A DNA stretch of 13,309 nt, from the UHGV virus genome UHGV-0315017; one strand, given 5' to 3'. Positions 406 through 13,083 of this stretch are shown piece after piece. The DNA is from a virus. The notes below the pieces were generated by a model. The model made no database searches and had not been told where the DNA came from. It saw nothing but the letters and a program-made list of their open reading frames with translations. The translations under genes and the position numbers were made by a program. Each line of letters starts with the position of its first letter. Position 1 is the first letter of the stretch.

Positions 406-482
406 CGGCACGTAGCGCAGCCTGGTAGCGCACCGTCATGGGGTGTCGGGGGTCGGAGGTTCAAATCCTCTCGTGCCGACCA
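406..482 (+). tRNA. proL: tRNA-Pro, anticodon GGG
   Basis: 77-nt sequence CGGCACGTAGCGCAGCCTGGTAGCGCACCGTCATGGGGTGTCGGGGGTCGGAGGTTCAAATCCTCTCGTGCCGACCA; cloverleaf features (GTAGCGCAGCCTGGTAGCGC D-arm, GGTTCAAATCC T-arm, U-GGG-G anticodon loop, encoded CCA). Confidence 0.9.
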
Positions 483-660: not shown

Positions 661-690
661 CCCTGTTTTTTCGTGTGGAATCATAGACAT

Positions 691-1932
691 ATGGCGAGAA
701 AAACACACCCATTAACCACAGTGCAGATCAAAGCAGCCAGACCAGCGCAAAAGGAGTACACCCTGCAGGACGGCGGAGGGCTTTTTCTCCTGGTCAAACC
801 GTCTGGATCAAAACTCTGGAGATTTTCCTACTACCGACCATCGGACAAAAAAAGAATATTGCTGAGTTTTGGATCGCTTGAAGATGTTTCCCTGGCTGAT
901 GCCAGAAAACGCCGTAGCGAGTACAGGACGTTAATCAGTGCCGGAACTGACCCGCAGGACCACGAGAGGCAAAAAAGAGAGACAGAGGCCCGAAGACAAG
1001 GGAACACGTTCGAAAATGTGGCGGCGGCATGGTACCAGGTGAAAATCAGCCAGAATCTGGCCCCCAACACGATTAAAGACATCTGGCGTTCGCTGGATAA
1101 ATATGTATTCCCGTTCATCGGCAACACGCCAATAGATACCCTCACCGCCCGAAGGTTCGTTGAAGTGCTTACCCCCATCAAGGAGCGCGGCAACCTGGAA
1201 ACACTCAAGCGGGTTTTACAGCGCGTTAATGAGGTAATGGATTACGCCGCCAACAGTGGGCTGATTGATGCCAATCCGGCTATGAATGTGCGTAAGGCGT
1301 TTCCCTCACCTGTAAAAAAACATATGCCAACAATCCGCCCCGAACAGCTGCCGGAGCTTATGCAGGCTTTATCAGTATCGGCAACAGAACGGCAGACCAG
1401 ATTACTGATTGAATGGCAGTTACTGACCGTAACCCGTCCCGCCGAAGCGTCATCAACGCGGTGGGATGAAATCAACCTGGACGCGAAGCAATGGACGATA
1501 CCTGCCGGACGCATGAAGATGCGCAGGGATCACGTTATCCCGCTTTCCGGTCAGGCTATGGCGGTGCTGGAGGCCATGAAACCAATCAGCCACCACCGCA
1601 ATTACGTTTTCCCAAGTCTGAAAGACCCACAGCAGCCGATGAACAGCCAGACAGCTAACGCAGCATTGCGGCGTATGGGATTCGCTGGCGTGCTGGTGTC
1701 TCATGGATTACGCGCCATATTCAGCACAGCAGCGAACGAGGAAGGATTCGAGCCGGACGTAATAGAGGCGGCACTTGCCCACGTCGACACCAACGAAGTT
1801 AGACGGGCATACAACCGGAGCAACTACATAGAAAAACGCATCGTGCTGATGCGCTGGTGGGGCGAATTTGTCGAGGCTGCGGCGACGGGCGTAACCCTCG
1901 CCAGTGGTAAAAGGGGTATCCGAGCCGTGTAG
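691..1932 (+). CDS. int: Tyrosine recombinase / integrase, P4 type
   Basis: N-terminal region (LTTVQIKAARP...YTLQDGGGLFLLVKPSGSKLWRFSYY) typical of P4-family integrases; C-terminal catalytic region with HGLR and terminal Tyr motifs (VSHGLRAIFSTAA...AYNRSNY). ATG at 691 preferred over GTG at 673 from the ORF track. Confidence 0.9.
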   Translation: MARKTHPLTTVQIKAARPAQKEYTLQDGGGLFLLVKPSGSKLWRFSYYRPSDKKRILLSFGSLEDVSLADARKRRSEYRTLISAGTDPQDHERQKRETEARRQGNTFENVAAAWYQVKISQNLAPNTIKDIWRSLDKYVFPFIGNTPIDTLTARRFVEVLTPIKERGNLETLKRVLQRVNEVMDYAANSGLIDANPAMNVRKAFPSPVKKHMPTIRPEQLPELMQALSVSATERQTRLLIEWQLLTVTRPAEASSTRWDEINLDAKQWTIPAGRMKMRRDHVIPLSGQAMAVLEAMKPISHHRNYVFPSLKDPQQPMNSQTANAALRRMGFAGVLVSHGLRAIFSTAANEEGFEPDVIEAALAHVDTNEVRRAYNRSNYIEKRIVLMRWWGEFVEAAATGVTLASGKRGIRAV

Positions 1933-2428: not shown

Positions 2429-2635
2429 ATGGAAGCAATCAGAAAAATTATCTTTCGCCAGGAAGTAAAAAAAATTATCCACATCAAGGCAGACAGCACG
2501 CTGCAAAGCATGATCAACGCCGGAGAATTTCCGCAGGGTTTTCGCGTTGGTTTACGCCGTCGCGGATGGTATGAGGATGATGTGTTGGCCTGGCAGAAAG
2601 AACGCGAACAGGAAGCACGCGGAACGGCTGCTTAA
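2429..2635 (+). CDS. alpA: AlpA-family (prophage regulatory / excisionase-like) helix-turn-helix protein
   Basis: 68 aa; spacing of conserved residues (STL..I..G.FP....LG.R..GW.E.DV..W) matches the AlpA/Xis-like family as recalled; position after int is typical for P4-like and PICI elements. Confidence 0.75.
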   Translation: MEAIRKIIFRQEVKKIIHIKADSTLQSMINAGEFPQGFRVGLRRRGWYEDDVLAWQKEREQEARGTAA

Positions 2636-3363: not shown

Positions 3364-3561
3364 ATGGTTGCTGTAAATCATATACCACACCTTGTACACA
3401 CACAAACGGCCTTTGTGTGGCGTTTTCTGGCACTGAGTGCCGGAGAATCTCAAATCATCCACGTAACCGCCTGGACGGAACGCGAAGCGCGTGGCCGTTG
3501 CCCGTCCGGTTGTGTTGCAGTATTCGCCGCCCGTATTCGTCAGGGGTCACATCATGCGTAA
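3364..3561 (+). CDS. Hypothetical small protein, paralog A (65 aa)
   Basis: AGGAG SD 7 nt upstream; shares FVWRF...TEREAR...ARIRQG motifs with the product of 3848-4015. Confidence 0.5.
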   Translation: MVAVNHIPHLVHTQTAFVWRFLALSAGESQIIHVTAWTEREARGRCPSGCVAVFAARIRQGSHHA

Positions 3562-3639
3562 AAACCGCTTGCAAAAAATTATAACGGGGCTGTATGCTTC
3601 CCCCGTCGCCCACATGGCGACCGGGTTTAGCAGCCTGAA

Positions 3640-3683
3640 TACTGTAGCGGACAGCCGCTTATATTCCGATATGCGGTTTTTTT
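3640..3683 (+). terminator. Hairpin plus T-run between the two paralog genes
   Basis: AGCGGACAGCCGCT and CCGC..ATAT/ATATGCGG stems followed by TTTTTTT (3677-3683). Confidence 0.4.
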
Positions 3684-3847
3684 GTGTCCGTAAGCCTACC
3701 CATACCCGCATTATGGCGGGGCGTAACGGGGGAGCCTTTGCGCTCGCTGGTTCCTACAGTGCCAGTCTGCTAACCCTGTTACGTCTCGCCACCCCGTTTA
3801 GCAGCGTAGTAGCGAGACTCCTTAAAATTACTGTAGGAGCCTTTCAC

Positions 3848-4015
3848 ATGGCTGTATCCGCACGCCCTTACTTTGTCTGGCGCTTTATGCAGTGCCAGGA
3901 AAAACAAACATCACTCTTTACCGTCACGGCAGCAACAGAACGCGAAGCCCGCGCCCAGCTGCCGCACGCACATCTGATTTTTGTCGCCCGTATTCGTCAG
4001 GGGGTAGGCTTATGA
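3848..4015 (+). CDS. Hypothetical small protein, paralog B (55 aa)
   Basis: AGGAGCC SD 9 nt upstream of ATG 3848; C-terminal 46 aa align with paralog A. The 174-aa ORF-track call from 3491 is rejected. Confidence 0.5.
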   Translation: MAVSARPYFVWRFMQCQEKQTSLFTVTAATEREARAQLPHAHLIFVARIRQGVGL

Positions 4016-4242
4016 GCCAGGAAATCACACTACAACAGGCAGCAGAACGCGCCCACCAAATCGAAGTTATTTGCGCACTGGCAGAGGATTACCCTGGCAT
4101 GATGACCGACAGCGAATCAGGGGCAATCATCGGCTTACTTAAACGCCTTAGCGGTGAGGTCTGCGTATTCCTGATCGATGAACAGGAAAGAAGAACGCTT
4201 ATTTCTAACGAAAAAAAATGCGGAGGGGTACATGTGCAATAA
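4012..4242 (+). CDS. Hypothetical protein (76 aa), translationally coupled to paralog B (ATGA overlap)
   Basis: Internal Met of ORF 3892-4242 with start overlapping the upstream stop; no recognisable motif. Confidence 0.45.
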   Translation: MSQEITLQQAAERAHQIEVICALAEDYPGMMTDSESGAIIGLLKRLSGEVCVFLIDEQERRTLISNEKKCGGVHVQ

Positions 4243-4462
4243 AACCACACCGGACGCAGCAGAAGAAGCAATGCAAATACTGATACGTGCGCTCGTTGAT
4301 GTTACCCACATGGTGGAGATTATGGAGAGAAAATCACAGTCGGAGCACGACAAAAGAAAACTTAAAACAATAAAAATAATTGCCAAAAACTCGCTGATAA
4401 AAGTTACAGACATCCTTAATGAGGACATTAAAAGAATAAGGGAGAAAATTTGTGATGCATAA
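4232..4462 (+). CDS. Hypothetical protein (76 aa) in AT-rich segment
   Basis: GGAGGGG SD 5-6 nt before ATG 4232; Lys/Ile/Glu-rich, predicted helical; composition visibly more AT-rich than flanks. Confidence 0.5.
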   Translation: MCNKTTPDAAEEAMQILIRALVDVTHMVEIMERKSQSEHDKRKLKTIKIIAKNSLIKVTDILNEDIKRIREKICDA

Positions 4463-4682
4463 AATCGATTTTGAAGTATTAATCCACTCTGAAAACGCAT
4501 TAATTAAAGCACGCGAAATGAATGCGTTGTTAATTAAATTAATTGAAGTGCCGGAAGGTGGCGAAGATCATTCATCATTAATGTTTGCCGCTGTTCAGAC
4601 ATTATTGACACCTGTTATTGATGAACTCAATAAGGCTATGGCAATTCACGAGAATAATAAAGCGCCCCACACCGGAGAATAA
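4455..4682 (+). CDS. Hypothetical protein (75 aa) in AT-rich segment, overlaps the previous gene
   Basis: GGAGAA SD 8 nt before ATG 4455; start overlaps the stop of 4232-4462. Confidence 0.5.
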   Translation: MHKIDFEVLIHSENALIKAREMNALLIKLIEVPEGGEDHSSLMFAAVQTLLTPVIDELNKAMAIHENNKAPHTGE

Positions 4683-4687
4683 AAATA

Positions 4688-4987
4688 ATGAAACTTAAAT
4701 ATTCTGGCTTAACTGCCAGTGGCAAAACTCGCACTAAATTCATGCGCGGTGATATTTACCGCGACCAGTACGGCGGCACGGTAATGATTAAGGGCGTGGA
4801 GGAACGGCGCATCACCTACCGTCGTGAAGGCTACGAATATGATTGCGTGATGCCTGTTTATCAGTTTCGGCGTGATTTTTCTCTGGTACAGGCAGCGCCC
4901 CGCAGTAAACCAACCAGCAGGGAGAAAGCACGCGCCAATATTCAGGAAATAAAAAAGATGCTTAACGTATTCAGGGGTAAAAAATGA
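4688..4987 (+). CDS. Hypothetical protein (99 aa) immediately upstream of and coupled to the primase gene
   Basis: GGAGAA SD; stop overlaps the primase start (ATGA at 4984-4987). Confidence 0.55.
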   Translation: MKLKYSGLTASGKTRTKFMRGDIYRDQYGGTVMIKGVEERRITYRREGYEYDCVMPVYQFRRDFSLVQAAPRSKPTSREKARANIQEIKKMLNVFRGKK

Positions 4988-6732
4988 AACTGGCACCGAA
5001 CGTAAAAAAACAACCACGCGGAATAAAACACAAAGACACAGAGGTAATTATTTTCGCGGGTAGTGATGCGTGGGCACATGCAAAACAGTGGCAGGAGCAG
5101 GACGGCCCCGCATCCGGCGATAATGTGCCGCCTGTGTGGCTTGGGCCAAATCAGCTTGCCGAACTTGATGCACTGAAAATTGTTCCGGATGGAAAAAAAC
5201 GCGTAAGGCTGTACCAGGCCGGAGAACTGGATTTGGTGGAGACCAAAAAGATTGGTCAGAAGCTGGCGGCGGCAGATATTCAGGACGCAAATTTTTACCA
5301 CGAAGGAATGCACGTCCAGAAGTGTGAAAACTGGCGGCGCTATCTGAATGCTGAGCGTGAAAATATTGCCGCAGGGCTTACCATGCCGGAGCAGAAAAAT
5401 ACGCAACTGGCACAAATGGCAGACAGTGAGCGCGCGCAGCTGCTTGCCGAGCGCTTTGATGGCGTTTGTGTGCATCAGGAAAGTGAAATCGTTCACGTAT
5501 GGCGCGGCGGGGTATGGTGTCCGGTCAGCACAATGGAACTTAGCCGCGAAATGGTGGCGATCTATTCAGAGCACAGGGCCACTTTCAGCAAGCGCGTAAT
5601 CAATAACGCCGTGGAAGCGTTAAAAGTTATTGCCGAACCAATGGGCGAGCCGTCCGGCGATTTGCTGCCGTTCGCCAATGGTGCGCTTGACCTGAAAACG
5701 GGGGAATTTTCCCCGCACACGCCGGAGAACTGGATCACCACGCACAACGGCATTGAGTACACGCCACCAGCACCTGGGGAGAACATCCGCGATAACGCGC
5801 CAAACTTTCATAAATGGCTTAAGCACGCAGCCGGAAAAGACCCGCGCAAGATGATGCGTATATGTGCCGCGCTGTACATGATTATGGCGAACCGGTACGA
5901 CTGGCAGATGTTTATTGAGGCCACCGGAGACGGCGGGAGCGGTAAAAGTACATTCACGCACATAGCCAGCCTTCTGGCAGGGAAACAGAACACGGTAAGC
6001 GCTGAAATGACATCGCTTGATGATGCTGGTGGACGTGCGCAGGTTGTCGGGAGTCGTCTTATCGTCCTGGCTGACCAGCCGAAATATACAGGCGAAGGAA
6101 CGGGCATCAAGAAAATCACGGGCGGTGACCCCGTGGAAATTAACCCGAAATACGAAAAGCGTTTCACGGCTGTAATCAGGGCGGTGGTGCTGGCGACCAA
6201 CAATAACCCGATGATATTCACCGAACGGGCCGGAGGTGTGGCACGTCGTCGCGTGATTTTCCGTTTCGACAATATCGTCAGTGAGGCCGAAAAAGACAGG
6301 GAGCTACCGGAAAAGATCGCGGCTGAAATCCCTGTCATTATCCGCCGATTGCTGGCGAACTTTACCGACCCTGAGAAGGCACGGGCTTTACTACTGGAAC
6401 AGCGTGACGGTGATGAAGCTCTGGCAATAAAGCAACAGACGGATCCGGTTATTGAGTTTTGCCAGTTCCTGAATTTTCTGGAGGAAGCACGCGGCCTGAT
6501 GATGGGCGGCGGTGGCGATTCAGTGAAGTACACGACCAGGAACAGCCTTTACCGCGTCTATCTGGCGTTTATGGCATACGCAGGCAGGAGCAAACCGCTA
6601 AACGTAAATGACTTTGGCAAGGCTATGAAGCCTGCCGCAAAAGTTTACGGACATGAATATATTACGCGGAAAGTTAAGGGGGTAACGCAGACTAACGCAA
6701 TAACAACAGACGAGTGCGACGCGTTTTTATAA
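4984..6732 (+). CDS. Replication initiator: primase / SF3 (D5-like) helicase, P4 alpha-like C-terminal region
   Basis: 582 aa with Walker A GDGGSGKST and downstream helicase-like motifs; size and position match the pri-rep genes of P4-like and PICI elements. Confidence 0.85.
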   Translation: MKLAPNVKKQPRGIKHKDTEVIIFAGSDAWAHAKQWQEQDGPASGDNVPPVWLGPNQLAELDALKIVPDGKKRVRLYQAGELDLVETKKIGQKLAAADIQDANFYHEGMHVQKCENWRRYLNAERENIAAGLTMPEQKNTQLAQMADSERAQLLAERFDGVCVHQESEIVHVWRGGVWCPVSTMELSREMVAIYSEHRATFSKRVINNAVEALKVIAEPMGEPSGDLLPFANGALDLKTGEFSPHTPENWITTHNGIEYTPPAPGENIRDNAPNFHKWLKHAAGKDPRKMMRICAALYMIMANRYDWQMFIEATGDGGSGKSTFTHIASLLAGKQNTVSAEMTSLDDAGGRAQVVGSRLIVLADQPKYTGEGTGIKKITGGDPVEINPKYEKRFTAVIRAVVLATNNNPMIFTERAGGVARRRVIFRFDNIVSEAEKDRELPEKIAAEIPVIIRRLLANFTDPEKARALLLEQRDGDEALAIKQQTDPVIEFCQFLNFLEEARGLMMGGGGDSVKYTTRNSLYRVYLAFMAYAGRSKPLNVNDFGKAMKPAAKVYGHEYITRKVKGVTQTNAITTDECDAFL

Positions 6733-6744
6733 TTTTTTGTAATT

Positions 6745-6972
6745 GCTGTCTACCCTGTCTACCCGAGTAAAGAAAAATACATTTAATTCAGTGCATTAAG
6801 TTAGGTAGATGGCCTTTTTTTACTGTCTACCCACTATCTACCCTCTCTACCTGATTTTACCTGAATCAGACAGGGAGGTAGACACGGGGTAGATACTGGA
6901 TAAAAGCACTCTACCCCGCTGAAAGCCGCGCCATTACTGGTATGAGGGCCACTAAGGTAGATAAGGTAGACA
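6745..6972. repeat. Iteron array (candidate replication origin): about 12 copies of TCTACC(C) / GGTAGA(C/T) in both orientations
   Basis: CTGTCTACCCTGTCTACCC, GGTAGATGG, CTGTCTACCCACTATCTACCCTCTCTACC, GAGGTAGACACGGGGTAGAT, CTCTACCCC, AAGGTAGATAAGGTAGAC; non-coding and immediately downstream of the primase-helicase gene. Confidence 0.65.
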
Positions 6973-7020
6973 AGGGGAGGCACAACTCAAAACTTTTTAA
7001 ACGAGGGGGTAAAAATAAAT

Positions 7021-7943: not shown

Positions 7944-9206
7944 ATGGCTGAAGAGAAAAAAGGCGGTGTTTCGGTGTACATAAGCCCCGACATCGTGAAG
8001 GCGCTCAAGGAACGCCACCAGCAGAACGTAAAAGCAGGCATTGCGGCAGGACTTGACCCGCTGGCGATGGTTGAGCCGTCAACAGGCTGGCAGGTACGCG
8101 CCTATTTACGCGCGGCGCTGGGTATGAATCAGGTTCACGGGGGGGGAATAATGACAGTAAAAGCAATGGCACTTAACACTAACCAGCTTTTTGCGTACCT
8201 GAATCGCGAGGATATTGCGGAATTTAAATTCAGTCCGCTGTTTACCACGCTGTTTTTCCCGAACGTGGCGACATTCAGCACGCAAAACATCATGCTGGAT
8301 ACCCTGGACATTGAAGAAGTCACCATGTCGGCGTTTTGTTCGCCTATGGTGGGTAGCCAGGTTCAGCGCGATAAAGGGTACGAAACCAGCACAATCAAAC
8401 CTGGCTACATGAAGCCAAAGCACGAAATCGATCCAACGAAAACCATCATGCGCATGGCTGGAGAAGATCCGGCACAGCTTAACGACCCTACCTATCGCCG
8501 TATGCGCCTGATTACTGGCAATATGCGCCGCCAGATAAACGCCATAAAAGCGCGCGTGGAATGGCTGGCGGTAAATGCGGTAACGACCGGAAAAAACATC
8601 ATTGAGGGCGAAGGCATAGAGCGCTATGAAATCGACTGGAAGATACCGGAAAAAAACATCATAGAGCAGGCCGACGGTAAAAAATGGTCAGAGCAGGACA
8701 AAGAAATCCACGATCCAATCTATGATATCGAACTATACGCCGATCAGGCAGGTTGCCCCGCCAACGTCATGATTATGGGCGCTGAGGTATGGCGAACGTT
8801 ACGCAGCTTTAAAAAATTCCGTGAGCTGTACGATCTTTCCCGTGGTTCAGAGTCCGCCGCAGAGCTGGCATGTAAAAACCTGGGCGAAGTGGTGAGCTTT
8901 AAAGGCTATCTGGGCGATATTGCCCTTATCGTCTATTCCGGCAAATACGCCGACAGTGACGGCAGAGAAAAATATTTCCTTGAGCCTGATTTGCTTGTCC
9001 TGGGCAACACCAACAATAAAGGGCTGGTGGCCTATGGTGCGATTATGGATCAGGACGCAGTAAGAACGGGGGCAACGCAAAACATGTACTACCCGAAAAA
9101 CTGGATTGAGGACGGAGATCCGGCGATTGAGTACGTGCAGACACACAGTGCACCGCAGCCGGTACCGGCAGTTATTCGCAAATTTGTTACCGTCAAAATT
9201 GGTTAA
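7944..9206 (+). CDS. Major capsid protein, lambda gpE-like, with about 70-aa N-terminal extension
   Basis: Long blocks shared with lambda gpE as recalled: KFSPLF..LFF, PGYMKPKHE, EDPAQLNDPTYRRMR, SFKGYLGDIALIVYSGKY, LVLGNT, YPKNW..GDPA. AGAGGA SD before ATG 7944. Confidence 0.88.
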   Translation: MAEEKKGGVSVYISPDIVKALKERHQQNVKAGIAAGLDPLAMVEPSTGWQVRAYLRAALGMNQVHGGGIMTVKAMALNTNQLFAYLNREDIAEFKFSPLFTTLFFPNVATFSTQNIMLDTLDIEEVTMSAFCSPMVGSQVQRDKGYETSTIKPGYMKPKHEIDPTKTIMRMAGEDPAQLNDPTYRRMRLITGNMRRQINAIKARVEWLAVNAVTTGKNIIEGEGIERYEIDWKIPEKNIIEQADGKKWSEQDKEIHDPIYDIELYADQAGCPANVMIMGAEVWRTLRSFKKFRELYDLSRGSESAAELACKNLGEVVSFKGYLGDIALIVYSGKYADSDGREKYFLEPDLLVLGNTNNKGLVAYGAIMDQDAVRTGATQNMYYPKNWIEDGDPAIEYVQTHSAPQPVPAVIRKFVTVKIG

Positions 9207-11167: not shown

Positions 11168-11231
11168 CTGGTTGATATTTTCGGAAACCTCAATTTGAGG
11201 AGGCCGGAAGCGTCACCCTTTAGATTCTGAA

Positions 11232-11246
11232 TGGTGATAATCACCA
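11232..11246. repeat. 15-bp palindrome TGGTGATAATCACCA (copy 1 of 3)
   Basis: Perfect palindrome; flanked CTGAA...CGCC. Confidence 0.6.
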
Positions 11247-11255
11247 CGCCCAATC

Positions 11256-11290: not shown

Positions 11291-11399
11291 AAAAGACGGT
11301 TTAACCGTTAATTAAAAATCGACGGGATTTTGTGTTTTCCGGACGACGTGGCCAACGTCATTTTTTAGCGAAAAATTCTGATTAAGGTCATTGTCTGAA

Positions 11400-11414
11400 T
11401 GGTCATAATGACCA
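11400..11414. repeat. 15-bp palindrome TGGTCATAATGACCA (copy 2 of 3)
   Basis: Perfect palindrome, preceded by CTGAA like copy 1. Confidence 0.6.
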
Positions 11415-11494
11415 CGCAGACCATCAAGGCAACCATAACGATTTTCGTTACGGTTGATGTGTGCCTTCGTCCGGCATTCGGACGATATAAGGGA

Positions 11495-11509
11495 TGGTCA
11501 TAATGACCA
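11495..11509. repeat. 15-bp palindrome TGGTCATAATGACCA (copy 3 of 3)
   Basis: Identical to copy 2. Confidence 0.6.
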
Positions 11510-11657
11510 CTCCTACAGAACAGGTAAAACCCACCAGCCTGATTAACAGTTAACCGGAAAAAAATCCGGCATGGGGGGGGAGTGGTTAGCCACGAACAAC
11601 GAATAAGCTGGACACCGCGCCCCCTCTCACGCAGAGAAAAAATTACCGTTTCGTAGT

Positions 11658-11822: not shown

Positions 11823-11927
11823 GAACATCCACCAGCTTAAAAACGAATGAGCGAAAAAAAATCCAGGTAGAATCATGGAAGTCGCTAGGGCAATCGCCGT
11901 TTAAATTGTGCATTTTTTCAGCAAATT

Positions 11928-11952
11928 ATTTTAGTTATACGTTTGGTTATAC
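11928..11952 (+). repeat. Arm-type direct repeat TTTTAGTTATACGTTTGGTTATACGG, partner of 604-628
   Basis: 24 of 25 positions identical to the left-end copy. Confidence 0.55.
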
Positions 11953-12003
11953 GGTTTAAAAGTTGAATCAATAATATTTATTAAAATCATGCGGTTACAC
12001 GCT

Positions 12004-12129: not shown

Positions 12130-13083
12130 TCAGAACGTCCAGACTACACCCGCCTGAGTTGTGCTGCTTTCTTCACGGGAGAAACGACTATCGATACCGA
12201 GCGTCAGCCCCGTCAATGTTTGCTCAAAGCCAGCGCCTGCATCAGTGGTCACGTCGTTGCGGCTGTTAATTGCCGAACTCCACATCGCCGTATCGTAATT
12301 AACGCCTTTTACGCTACCAAGACGCCCACGCACGGTGTCCAGTTCTGCATCAAATACCAGCGGTTGTGCTGCCGCCATATTCAGCACATCCGTGGTTGAA
12401 GGGGTCATTTGTGCGCGATTCTCTGCGAGACTCCAGCTATGGTTGCCATTATCCAGCAAGGTATATTCATACGTACTGATATCAACAACGCTTCCGGCAT
12501 TGCCCAACGTAAATGCAGCATCACCGCCGCCCGTTGTTACCAGTGTAAGGCTATCTCCTGCTGCCGGGCTGGCACCGGTGTCCGTCACGAATATTTTGAA
12601 ATCACCTGTTGCTTTAACCTCCAGTAGTCCTCCCTTTTCTATAACGGCAAAGACGGCAATCCCATCTTTTTCAACAATTAAGCGCCCGCCTTTAATCGTG
12701 GGATCATTCGCCGCGCCATAAACCTGTAGCACTCCATTATTGATCGTAGTCTGATTTACCGCGCCACCCATTTGAACAATTTGATAACCATCATTTAATA
12801 CTGCGTATTCTGCGGTGCCATTTATTTCAACGTACTGATATCCCCCGTTAATTTCAGTATTACTACTTACACCAAATTCTTATATATGCTGTTCTCCGCC
12901 AGGATTGATTTTCGTATTATTGGCGGTCCAATAAACCAGCTGGATATCTTTTTCCAGGACAACACCATCAACTGGCTCACCATACTCAACAGTTGATGCC
13001 AATGCTATGGGCGAATATAACGCTGTAGCCACCAGAACAGATATTGCGGAACGACAAAGAGAAACAGAACCAGATTGGTGCAT
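12130..13083 (-). pseudogene. Autotransporter/adhesin-like gene interrupted by an in-frame TAA (12880-12882); possibly a yejO-type locus
   Basis: ORFs 12880-13083 (signal-peptide-like N-terminus) and 12130-12771 (Gly/Thr-rich beta-helix-like repeats ending ...VVWTF) are in the same frame, separated by a single TAA. The total length is too short for a complete autotransporter. Confidence 0.5.

Follow-up and report, generated by a model that had tools for sequence, protein, structure and literature searches.

Low GC content is commonly read as the mark of a recently acquired gene. Does this inference hold for a pair of small, AT-rich genes in the early operon of a satellite element? The genes, open reading frames (ORFs) ORF1 and ORF2, occupy positions 4232–4682 of virus genome UHGV-0315017. 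This 13,309-nt stretch of DNA, referred to here as the window, holds an EcCICFT073-type phage-inducible chromosomal island (PICI), 11.3 kb, of Escherichia coli. An initial annotation, made from the letters alone, described two overlapping ORFs of 76 and 75 codons, each with a Shine–Dalgarno (SD) sequence, that are more AT-rich than the rest of the element and encode helical proteins. It placed them as a translationally coupled pair in a satellite early operon, and it took their composition to suggest recent acquisition, adding that small cargo genes so placed in satellites frequently interfere with the helper or act against host defense. The descriptive part of this account is borne out, with the refinement that the coupling runs through a chain of six ORFs, which includes ORF0, and not through an isolated pair. 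The suggestion drawn from composition divides. It fails for ORF2, which belongs to an old, core, and uniformly AT-rich family, and it is plausible only for ORF1, which is rare and shallow in its distribution.

Composition, Coding Status, and Predicted Folds

The coordinates and frames of both ORFs (Table 1) are correct as first described, and RefSeq/PGAP calls exactly the same two coding sequences in an island that is 97% identical. The GC content of the 451-bp span is 0.375, as compared to a mean of 0.492 (standard deviation, 0.044) over non-overlapping windows, which corresponds to z = −2.7. Sliding windows that are equally low in GC make up 2.3% of the total, and the sole lower stretch is found at the right end of the island; positions 4232–4682 are the lowest-GC coding stretch that the island contains. 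The bias extends to third codon positions (GC3), of which 56 of 153 (0.366) are G or C in the pair versus 1319 of 2331 (0.566) in the remaining genes of the island (Fisher p = 2e-6). A GC3 deficit is still observed once the amino acids of each protein and the codon usage of the island are taken into account (ORF1, z = −2.3; ORF2, z = −4.0). Ratios of nonsynonymous to synonymous substitution rates (dN/dS) among homologues are 0.40 for ORF1 and 0.20 for ORF2, as compared to 0.56–2.1 in shifted frames (0.9–2.1 in the ORF2 control). Both ORFs are genuine protein-coding genes under purifying selection.

The AT-rich stretch was also considered as a replication origin. This role was rejected, because an iteron origin is located elsewhere in the island (Table 1) and positions 4150–4750 contain only short chance repeats. 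No hidden RNA was found in the stretch using Rfam, and its promoter-like sites are in no excess over chance.

AlphaFold2 predicts a two-helix hairpin for each protein. In ORF1, the helices span residues 7–34 and 38–75 (predicted local distance difference test score, pLDDT, 87.5); in ORF2, they span residues 6–30 and 38–69 (pLDDT 81.6). Similar folds are predicted with confidence across alleles of the ORF2 family, designated F2, that are only 32–38% identical. The two proteins carry opposite charges: ORF1 is mildly basic (isoelectric point, pI, 8.8), whereas ORF2 has a net charge of about −6.5, and its family ranges from −6.5 to −7.4. Acidic proteins (net −5 to −7) are the rule among the small ORFs that share this region in related islands, namely ORF0, F2, and the F1b/c and F4d proteins described below. 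By contrast, the DUF4222 protein encoded immediately downstream is strongly basic (~+12).

The F2 Family and the Age of ORF2

ORF2 matches PHROG 2196 (E = 2.6e-9) over residues 1–69 of 75, and the F2 family profile has 690 database relatives at E ≤ 0.01. Related loci were collected from two starting points: 79 IMG/VR loci were gathered starting from ORF2, and 82 loci (80 from IMG/VR and 2 genomic) were gathered starting independently from DUF4222. After addition of E. coli genome loci, including those of CFT073 and an O157:H7 island, the set held 113 complete, non-redundant arrays running from the icd-like leader ORF to DUF4222. An F2 gene directly abuts DUF4222, on its upstream side, in 112 of the 113, EcCICFT073 among them. 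The same adjacency is seen at 84 of 84 loci found from ORF2 and at 80 of 80 found independently from DUF4222. The sole exception, the O157:H7 island with a DUF927 replicase, carries a divergent 80-aa F2 allele in the same place (hidden Markov model, HMM, E = 2e-6; GC 0.39).

W-type F2 alleles share 72–99% identity; when compared to ORF2 of the window, alleles of an intermediate type are 57–66% identical and those of the F2b type 32–38% identical. All of them retain A15, L16, M22, L26, the motif TLLxPVIxEL, and a C-terminal HTGE, the codons of which provide the SD sequence of DUF4222. The low GC content is shared as well: all 79 sampled F2 copies fall between 0.36 and 0.42 (mean GC3 0.35), versus 0.49 for DUF4222. 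The median synonymous divergence (dS) among W-type F2 alleles is 0.70, and W-type ORF2 is present in 189 of 5,426 complete E. coli genomes at 60–99% identity. Because low GC is uniform among F2 copies that are this diverged and almost invariably placed next to DUF4222, the AT-richness of ORF2 is no mark of recent arrival. ORF2 is the local W-type allele of an old core family, and its AT-richness is a stable family trait.

The islands themselves are mosaic, in that the F2 allele tracks neither replicase type (P4-type primase, RepA helicase, or DUF927) nor DUF4222 allele. Two loci illustrate the latter point: L004 and L005 encode identical DUF4222 proteins, which are found beside an F2b allele and a W-type F2 allele, respectively. 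The interval from the icd-like ORF to DUF4222 is likewise variable, containing 1–5 small ORFs in 221–1864 nt.

ORF1 and the F1 Slot

ORF1 matches PHROG 5146 (E = 4.5e-8) over 70 of 76 residues. It fills an optional slot, designated F1, of which it represents the W-type allele. Its identity to the F1b/c alleles of EcCICFT073-type arrays is about 31% (31%, E = 2e-10, for F1b of L004), and it has the N-terminus MCNKTTPDAA and the first helix (PDAAxEA..L..AL.D) in common with them. When 1.84 billion representative proteins were searched exhaustively with phmmer, only three clusters matched ORF1. Among the 5,426 complete E. coli genomes, 43 contain ORF1, 35 of them at ≥99% nucleotide identity, and near-identical copies are found beside ORF2 alleles of 76%, 88%, and 99% identity. 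ORF1 is present in 22 of 41 W-type arrays as compared to none of the 72 arrays whose F2 allele is of another type (Fisher p = 1.7e-12). ORF1 is therefore a near-ORFan, nearly clonal allele of an optional slot that is found only beside W-type ORF2, and its cassette may plausibly have spread recently. The two properties taken to distinguish recently acquired foreign cargo, namely a deviant composition and a distribution that is patchy and shallow, coincide in ORF1 but not in ORF2, which deviates in composition yet is universal and deep in its distribution. A lack of conservation in related elements had been set beforehand as the result that would overturn the initial annotation; both ORFs are conserved in such elements, so its account was not overturned on this ground.

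In an alternative array type, the hairpin genes F1b/c and F4d are often fused in frame, giving a protein of ~150 aa (loci L052, L055, L058, L059, L064, L067, L069, L074, L075, L077, L078, L080–L082, and L084). In other relatives, including EcCICFT073, F1b/c and F4d are two separate genes. The in-frame fusions suggest that members of the array may associate physically. One sequence, P0187, is a recombinant in which the N-terminus of F1c and the C-terminus of F4d meet in a NIL motif common to both. BLASTP and hhalign comparisons of the array families (ORF0, F1, F4d, F2, and F4c) with one another gave no sign of paralogy, the latter with probabilities ≤3.3%.

The Coupled Operon and Its C4 RNA

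ORF1 and ORF2 are the third and fourth links of the coupled chain, which runs icd-like, ORF0, ORF1, ORF2, DUF4222, and primase and is held together by 4–11-nt overlaps or a 5-nt gap (Table 1). The ATGA overlap that joins DUF4222 to the replicase gene is seen for every replicase type: P4-type primase, RepA helicase, and DUF927. ORF0 is identical in protein sequence to WP_000076671.1 of EcCICFT073.

Table 1. Features of the window and junctions of the coupled chain
Feature	Position	Strand	Description
tRNA-Pro(GGG)	406–482		just upstream of integrase
att-like repeats	592–628 and 11918–11954		37-nt direct repeat, 84% identical, core TTTTAGTTATACGTTT(A/G)GTTATACGG; bound the ~11.3-kb island
integrase	673–1932		Pfam/PHROG scans
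AlpA regulator	2429–2635		Pfam/PHROG scans
YlcI/YnfO-like gene		−	
second icd-like ORF	3365–3561		
C4-family antisense RNA	3709–3796	+	Rfam RF01695, 71.5 bits (gathering score 45); fold z = −4.9
C4 target site	3830–3839	+	overlaps SD TAGGAG (3834–3839) of icd-like ORF
icd-like leader ORF	3849–4015	+	55 aa; NCBIfam NF033153, E = 5e-14, on C-terminal 48 aa; first chain link
ORF0	4012–4242	+	76 aa; acidic; PHROG 1478; optional array member
ORF1	4232–4462	+	76 aa; ATG 4232, TAA 4460–4462; SD GGAGG 4222–4226, five nt before ATG
ORF2	4455–4682	+	75 aa; ATG 4455 (or GTG 4452), TAA 4680–4682; SD GGGAG 4440–4444
DUF4222/RgdR-like protein	4688–4987	+	Pfam PF13973, E = 6e-24; pI ~10; net ~+12; RGD at aa 20–22
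P4/D5-type primase-helicase	4984–6732	+	Pfam D5_N, DUF5906, Pox_D5; PHROG 864; chain end
iteron origin	6740–6977		≥10 copies of TGTCTACC/GGTAGACA, both orientations, around A/T-rich run, directly downstream of primase
junction icd-like/ORF0			ATGA overlap
junction ORF0/ORF1			11-nt overlap
junction ORF1/ORF2			8-nt overlap (11 nt if ORF2 GTG start is used)
junction ORF2/DUF4222			5-nt gap; DUF4222 SD GGAGA 4674–4678 within last ORF2 codons
junction DUF4222/primase			ATGA overlap

A C4-family antisense RNA is encoded upstream of the first link. The loop of its second hairpin, UCCUACAGU (3752–3760, 9 nt), is exactly complementary to ACTGTAGGA (3830–3838). Judging from this pairing, the C4 RNA likely gates translation of the operon in this copy. 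In the immI system of P1, which consists of c4 RNA, icd, and ant, the downstream genes are translationally coupled to icd. Expression of both ORF1 and ORF2 would similarly be relayed by translational coupling from the icd-like ORF, and because of this coupling the C4 RNA would keep both off until induction of the island, in the manner of P1 immI. One relative, L005, has two C4 RNA matches (plus an isrK match). No mention of a C4 gate in PICIs was found in the literature searched. Separately, a 174-aa ORF (3491–4015, + strand), labeled 'Icd-like' by annotation pipelines, runs through the C4 RNA gene, and the Icd-like model covers only its last ~48 residues. This ORF looks over-called, and the true icd-like ORFs are probably those at 3365–3561 and 3849–4015.

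Comparison with Known Systems

The island is colinear in gene order with EcCICFT073, which has been studied experimentally. Both contain int, AlpA, YlcI (minus strand), the icd-like ORF, ORF0, a small-ORF array, DUF4222, primase, the single-stranded DNA-binding protein (SSB), capsid, and decoration genes. In EcCICFT073, C_RS06965, C_RS06970, and C_RS06975 are found upstream of c1493, which encodes an RgdR homologue, and the primase gene; C_RS06975 is a member of F2 (HMM E = 4.5e-41), and C_RS06965 is a member of F1 (E = 3e-42). The two islands differ in the alleles that they carry, because the EcCICFT073 array is F0-F1c-F4d-F2b. ORF2 is ~32–38% identical to F2b alleles and ORF1 is ~31% identical to F1b. 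EcCICFT073 also lacks a C4 RNA at the gathering score.

The left operon of P4 has the order AlpA-like ORF88/Vis, CI/C4 RNA, epsilon, orf151 (8-nt overlap), cnr, and alpha primase. It resembles the window in its AlpA-like gene, its C4-family RNA (RF01695, 74.9 bits in P4), its small overlapping ORFs, and its P4-family primase, and both are immunity-controlled early operons of satellites. In contrast to the window, P4 has no icd-like ORF or DUF4222, and ORF1 and ORF2 are unrelated to epsilon (PF25738), orf151, and cnr (DUF5375). Kinship to these three proteins was rejected, given hhalign probabilities <1% (0.4% for epsilon) and no PF25738 match; as a positive control, P4 epsilon itself hits PF25738 (Derepression protein family) at E = 9e-51. 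Kinship between DUF4222 and orf151 was also set aside, as the signal is weak (E = 0.011) and is not confirmed by Pfam.

The immI loci of P1 and P7 (c4 RNA, icd, and ant1/ant2) are similar to the window in that the ribosome-binding site of the icd-like ORF is matched by a complementary C4 loop and the downstream genes are coupled. They are dissimilar in what follows, which in the window is a set of small hairpin ORFs, DUF4222, and a primase rather than the Ant antirepressor. Pfam and NCBIfam searches revealed no Ant, KilA, or BRO domain in ORF0, ORF1, or ORF2.

Searches for Function

The initial annotation stated that no motif identifies a function for the pair, and the same result is obtained from Pfam, NCBIfam, PADLOC, PDB-sequence, and Foldseek searches. 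ORF0, ORF1, and ORF2 have no match in Pfam (E ≤ 0.1), NCBIfam, or PADLOC, and Pfam scans of individual family members at E ≤ 5 give only scattered noise. Profile searches of PDB sequences return only designed proteins and FlgL at E > 1e-4. Foldseek searches of the PDB with both models and of BFVD with ORF2 give no match at E ≤ 0.001. HK446 Rip1 was disregarded as a fold relative of ORF1, its Foldseek probability being 0.23. Assignment of the pair to known defense or anti-defense proteins was rejected, with zero PADLOC families and no Foldseek match at E ≤ 0.001, as was the presence of type II toxin–antitoxin domains, with no Pfam, NCBIfam, or PADLOC match.

A tblastn search of 50,697 phage records found no homologues in deposited phage genomes, and members of PHROG 2196 and PHROG 5146 therefore presumably come from prophage-like (satellite) regions. 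Neither PHROG has a functional annotation. The pair consists of uncharacterized members of these existing families. The type of element is a known one, and so is the position, which is that of small coupled ORFs in the early operon of a satellite. The sole functional anchor for the pair is its RgdR-like neighbor. The DUF4222 protein is homologous to RgdR (ECs1581) and to C1493 of CFT073. RgdR is a 99-aa protein with a pI of 10 that activates type III secretion of the enterocyte effacement locus (LEE) via Ler and represses motility (PMC3378721, PMC10877973), and it binds DNA non-specifically (PMC3378721). The sequence just upstream of rgdR is described by the authors of these studies as differing between O157 lineages (PMC3378721, PMC10877973); this difference may reflect F2 allelic variation.

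Proposed Role of the Pair and Alternatives

Our best inference is that ORF1 and ORF2 may be small protein-binding modules. Having no enzymatic or DNA-binding motif, the proteins would act purely through protein–protein binding. Pairs of hairpins would assemble as four-helix bundles, in which ORF2 would join either another copy of itself or, where it is present, ORF1. The conserved face of ORF2, which contains the invariant TLLxPVIxEL, would touch a conserved partner, likeliest the basic RgdR-like protein or the replication machinery of the same transcript, and ORF2 would modulate this partner early in the island cycle. Variable faces and the swappable ORF1 would tune specificity, or add it, toward helper or host proteins. 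The acidity of the ORF2 family versus the basicity of DUF4222, the in-frame F1b/c-F4d fusions, and the P4-like gene order support this model. For the package as a whole (a coupling relay in the early operon, C4 gating, protein-binding hairpins, and a conserved partner of ORF2), we judge the chances to be evenly balanced, and any one specific binding partner is much less probable. The most explicit version, in which ORF2 would be dedicated to the RgdR-like protein as its partner, antagonist, or chaperone and ORF1 and F1/F4d would be exchangeable specificity subunits in hetero four-helix bundles, is quite unlikely to be correct in full.

Several observations weigh against this model. F2 alleles are freely swapped against identical DUF4222 proteins, and no allele-specific co-variation is seen; their adjacency could thus stem from operon history alone. 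The association of ORF1 with W-type ORF2 may be simple physical linkage. The C4 RNA scores below the gathering score in EcCICFT073 and six other relatives, which limits gating to this copy and a subset of islands. Foldseek hits are all generic hairpins or designed proteins, with E > 0.1, and a monomeric hairpin model is uninformative on specific function. Lastly, the literature searched contains no study of genes of the ORF1 or ORF2 families, the EcCICFT073 counterparts included, and no report of a partner experiment.

An alternative, in line with the initial annotation, is that the pair, and chiefly ORF1, is recently acquired accessory cargo for helper interference or counter-defense. Small acidic helical proteins are typical inhibitors, and the pair deviates significantly in composition. 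The slot between the icd-like ORF and DUF4222 is variable (1–5 small ORFs), the complete arrangement of positions 3900–4990 occurs in only 3 of 5,426 genomes, and ORF1 is the rare, nearly clonal near-ORFan described above. In addition, the genes of EcCICFT073 that are responsible for lambda interference are incompletely identified (PMC6092414). However, the ORF2 family is universal, old, and uniformly AT-rich, a core family rather than cargo. Neither PADLOC nor the tblastn search of phage records gave a match, and no fold match to a known anti-defense or interference protein was obtained. We regard cargo of this kind as unlikely.

The peptides could instead matter little in themselves. ORF1 and ORF2 would then be translated spacers through which ribosomes pass from the C4-gated icd-like ORF on to DUF4222 and primase, with AT-richness keeping the mRNA unstructured. 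The unbroken chain of overlaps would suit this role, as would the retention of HTGE, in which the DUF4222 SD sequence is embedded, in all alleles of ORF2. An array may hold as few as 1 or as many as 5 ORFs, with the downstream genes retained, and low GC3 persists despite long residence. The dN/dS values of 0.2–0.4, versus 0.56–2.1 in shifted frames, argue against this explanation, as do an internal invariant motif that is far from either junction and confident, similar folds in alleles only 32–38% identical. Furthermore, at least one F2 gene is always kept, even though direct coupling of icd to DUF4222 would suffice. A role chiefly as spacers is very unlikely.

An equally small chance is given to an anti-repressor like P4 epsilon, whereby one of the hairpins would bind the repressor of a helper prophage and induce the helper. 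The pair is at a position equivalent to that of epsilon in the P4 left operon, the window has both a C4 RNA and a P4-family primase, and the high allelic diversity would suit diverse helper repressors. The invariant TLLxPVIxEL, by contrast, favors a conserved target over a diverse one, and the sequence comparisons with epsilon, orf151, and cnr are negative, as noted above (no PF25738 match; hhalign <1%). Moreover, EcCICFT073-type islands are described as being induced by the helper rather than the reverse (PMC6092414).

Least probable of all is a toxin–antitoxin-like or abortive-infection pair with a basic, active ORF1 and an acidic, neutralizing ORF2: the genes are small, overlapping, and opposite in net charge, and ORF1 never occurs without W-type ORF2 while ORF2 is often alone (p = 1.7e-12), but no toxin–antitoxin or defense family is matched (Pfam, NCBIfam, PADLOC), the F1b/c alleles homologous to ORF1 are acidic, and the ORF2 family is present in all islands irrespective of ORF1, so that neutralizing ORF1 cannot be its primary role.

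Other Features of the Island and the Window

The assignment of the element as a PICI follows from its integrase, AlpA, and primase genes, the iteron origin after the primase, a length in the range of ~10–15 kb, and the att repeats; the definition also calls for the lack of a full set of phage structural and lysis genes. Downstream of the iteron origin, the island encodes SSB, a capsid protein similar to lambda gpE, a decoration protein similar to gpD, and a Nu1-like small terminase (TerS). A near-identical island in NZ_CM128588.1 is inserted in tqsA instead, indicating that the same cargo uses different integrases and attachment sites.

The gpE-like capsid gene (7944–9206, + strand) is a single 420-aa ORF in the window. 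In EcCICFT073 and most relatives, two ORFs cover this region, one of 207 nt and a capsid ORF of 1056 nt, which overlap by 4 nt. A 17-nt palindrome, ATGGTCATAATGACCAC, occurs three times (11231–11247, 11399–11415, and 11494–11510) downstream of the Nu1-like gene, close to the island's right end, and may be a protein-binding or packaging site. Outside the right att-like repeat, a 213-aa ORF (12130–12771, − strand) is Gly/Thr-rich and repeat-like, and its GC skew is strongly negative; a surface protein, or one resembling an autotransporter, may be what it is a fragment of.

Conclusions

Our analysis corrects the common inference that an AT-rich gene is a recently acquired one, because at this locus a core gene has long had low GC as a family trait. 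Islands of the EcCICFT073 type are common in E. coli and carry RgdR, a regulator of type III secretion in enterohemorrhagic E. coli (EHEC); DNA matching the slot region, mostly the DUF4222 gene and its flanks, is found in 1,066 of 5,426 complete E. coli genomes. The small acidic hairpin gene is a constant and unstudied companion of rgdR and the replicase gene, and some of these PICIs would have a P1/P4-type C4 RNA gate ahead of their replication operon. If the most explicit version of the model, with ORF2 dedicated to the RgdR-like protein, is in fact correct, then, because both would be made from the same coupled message, induction of the satellite would be linked to what RgdR is known to do in EHEC and uropathogenic E. 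coli (UPEC), where it affects LEE type III secretion and motility. In that case, a new family of satellite-encoded small regulator-modulators would be defined.

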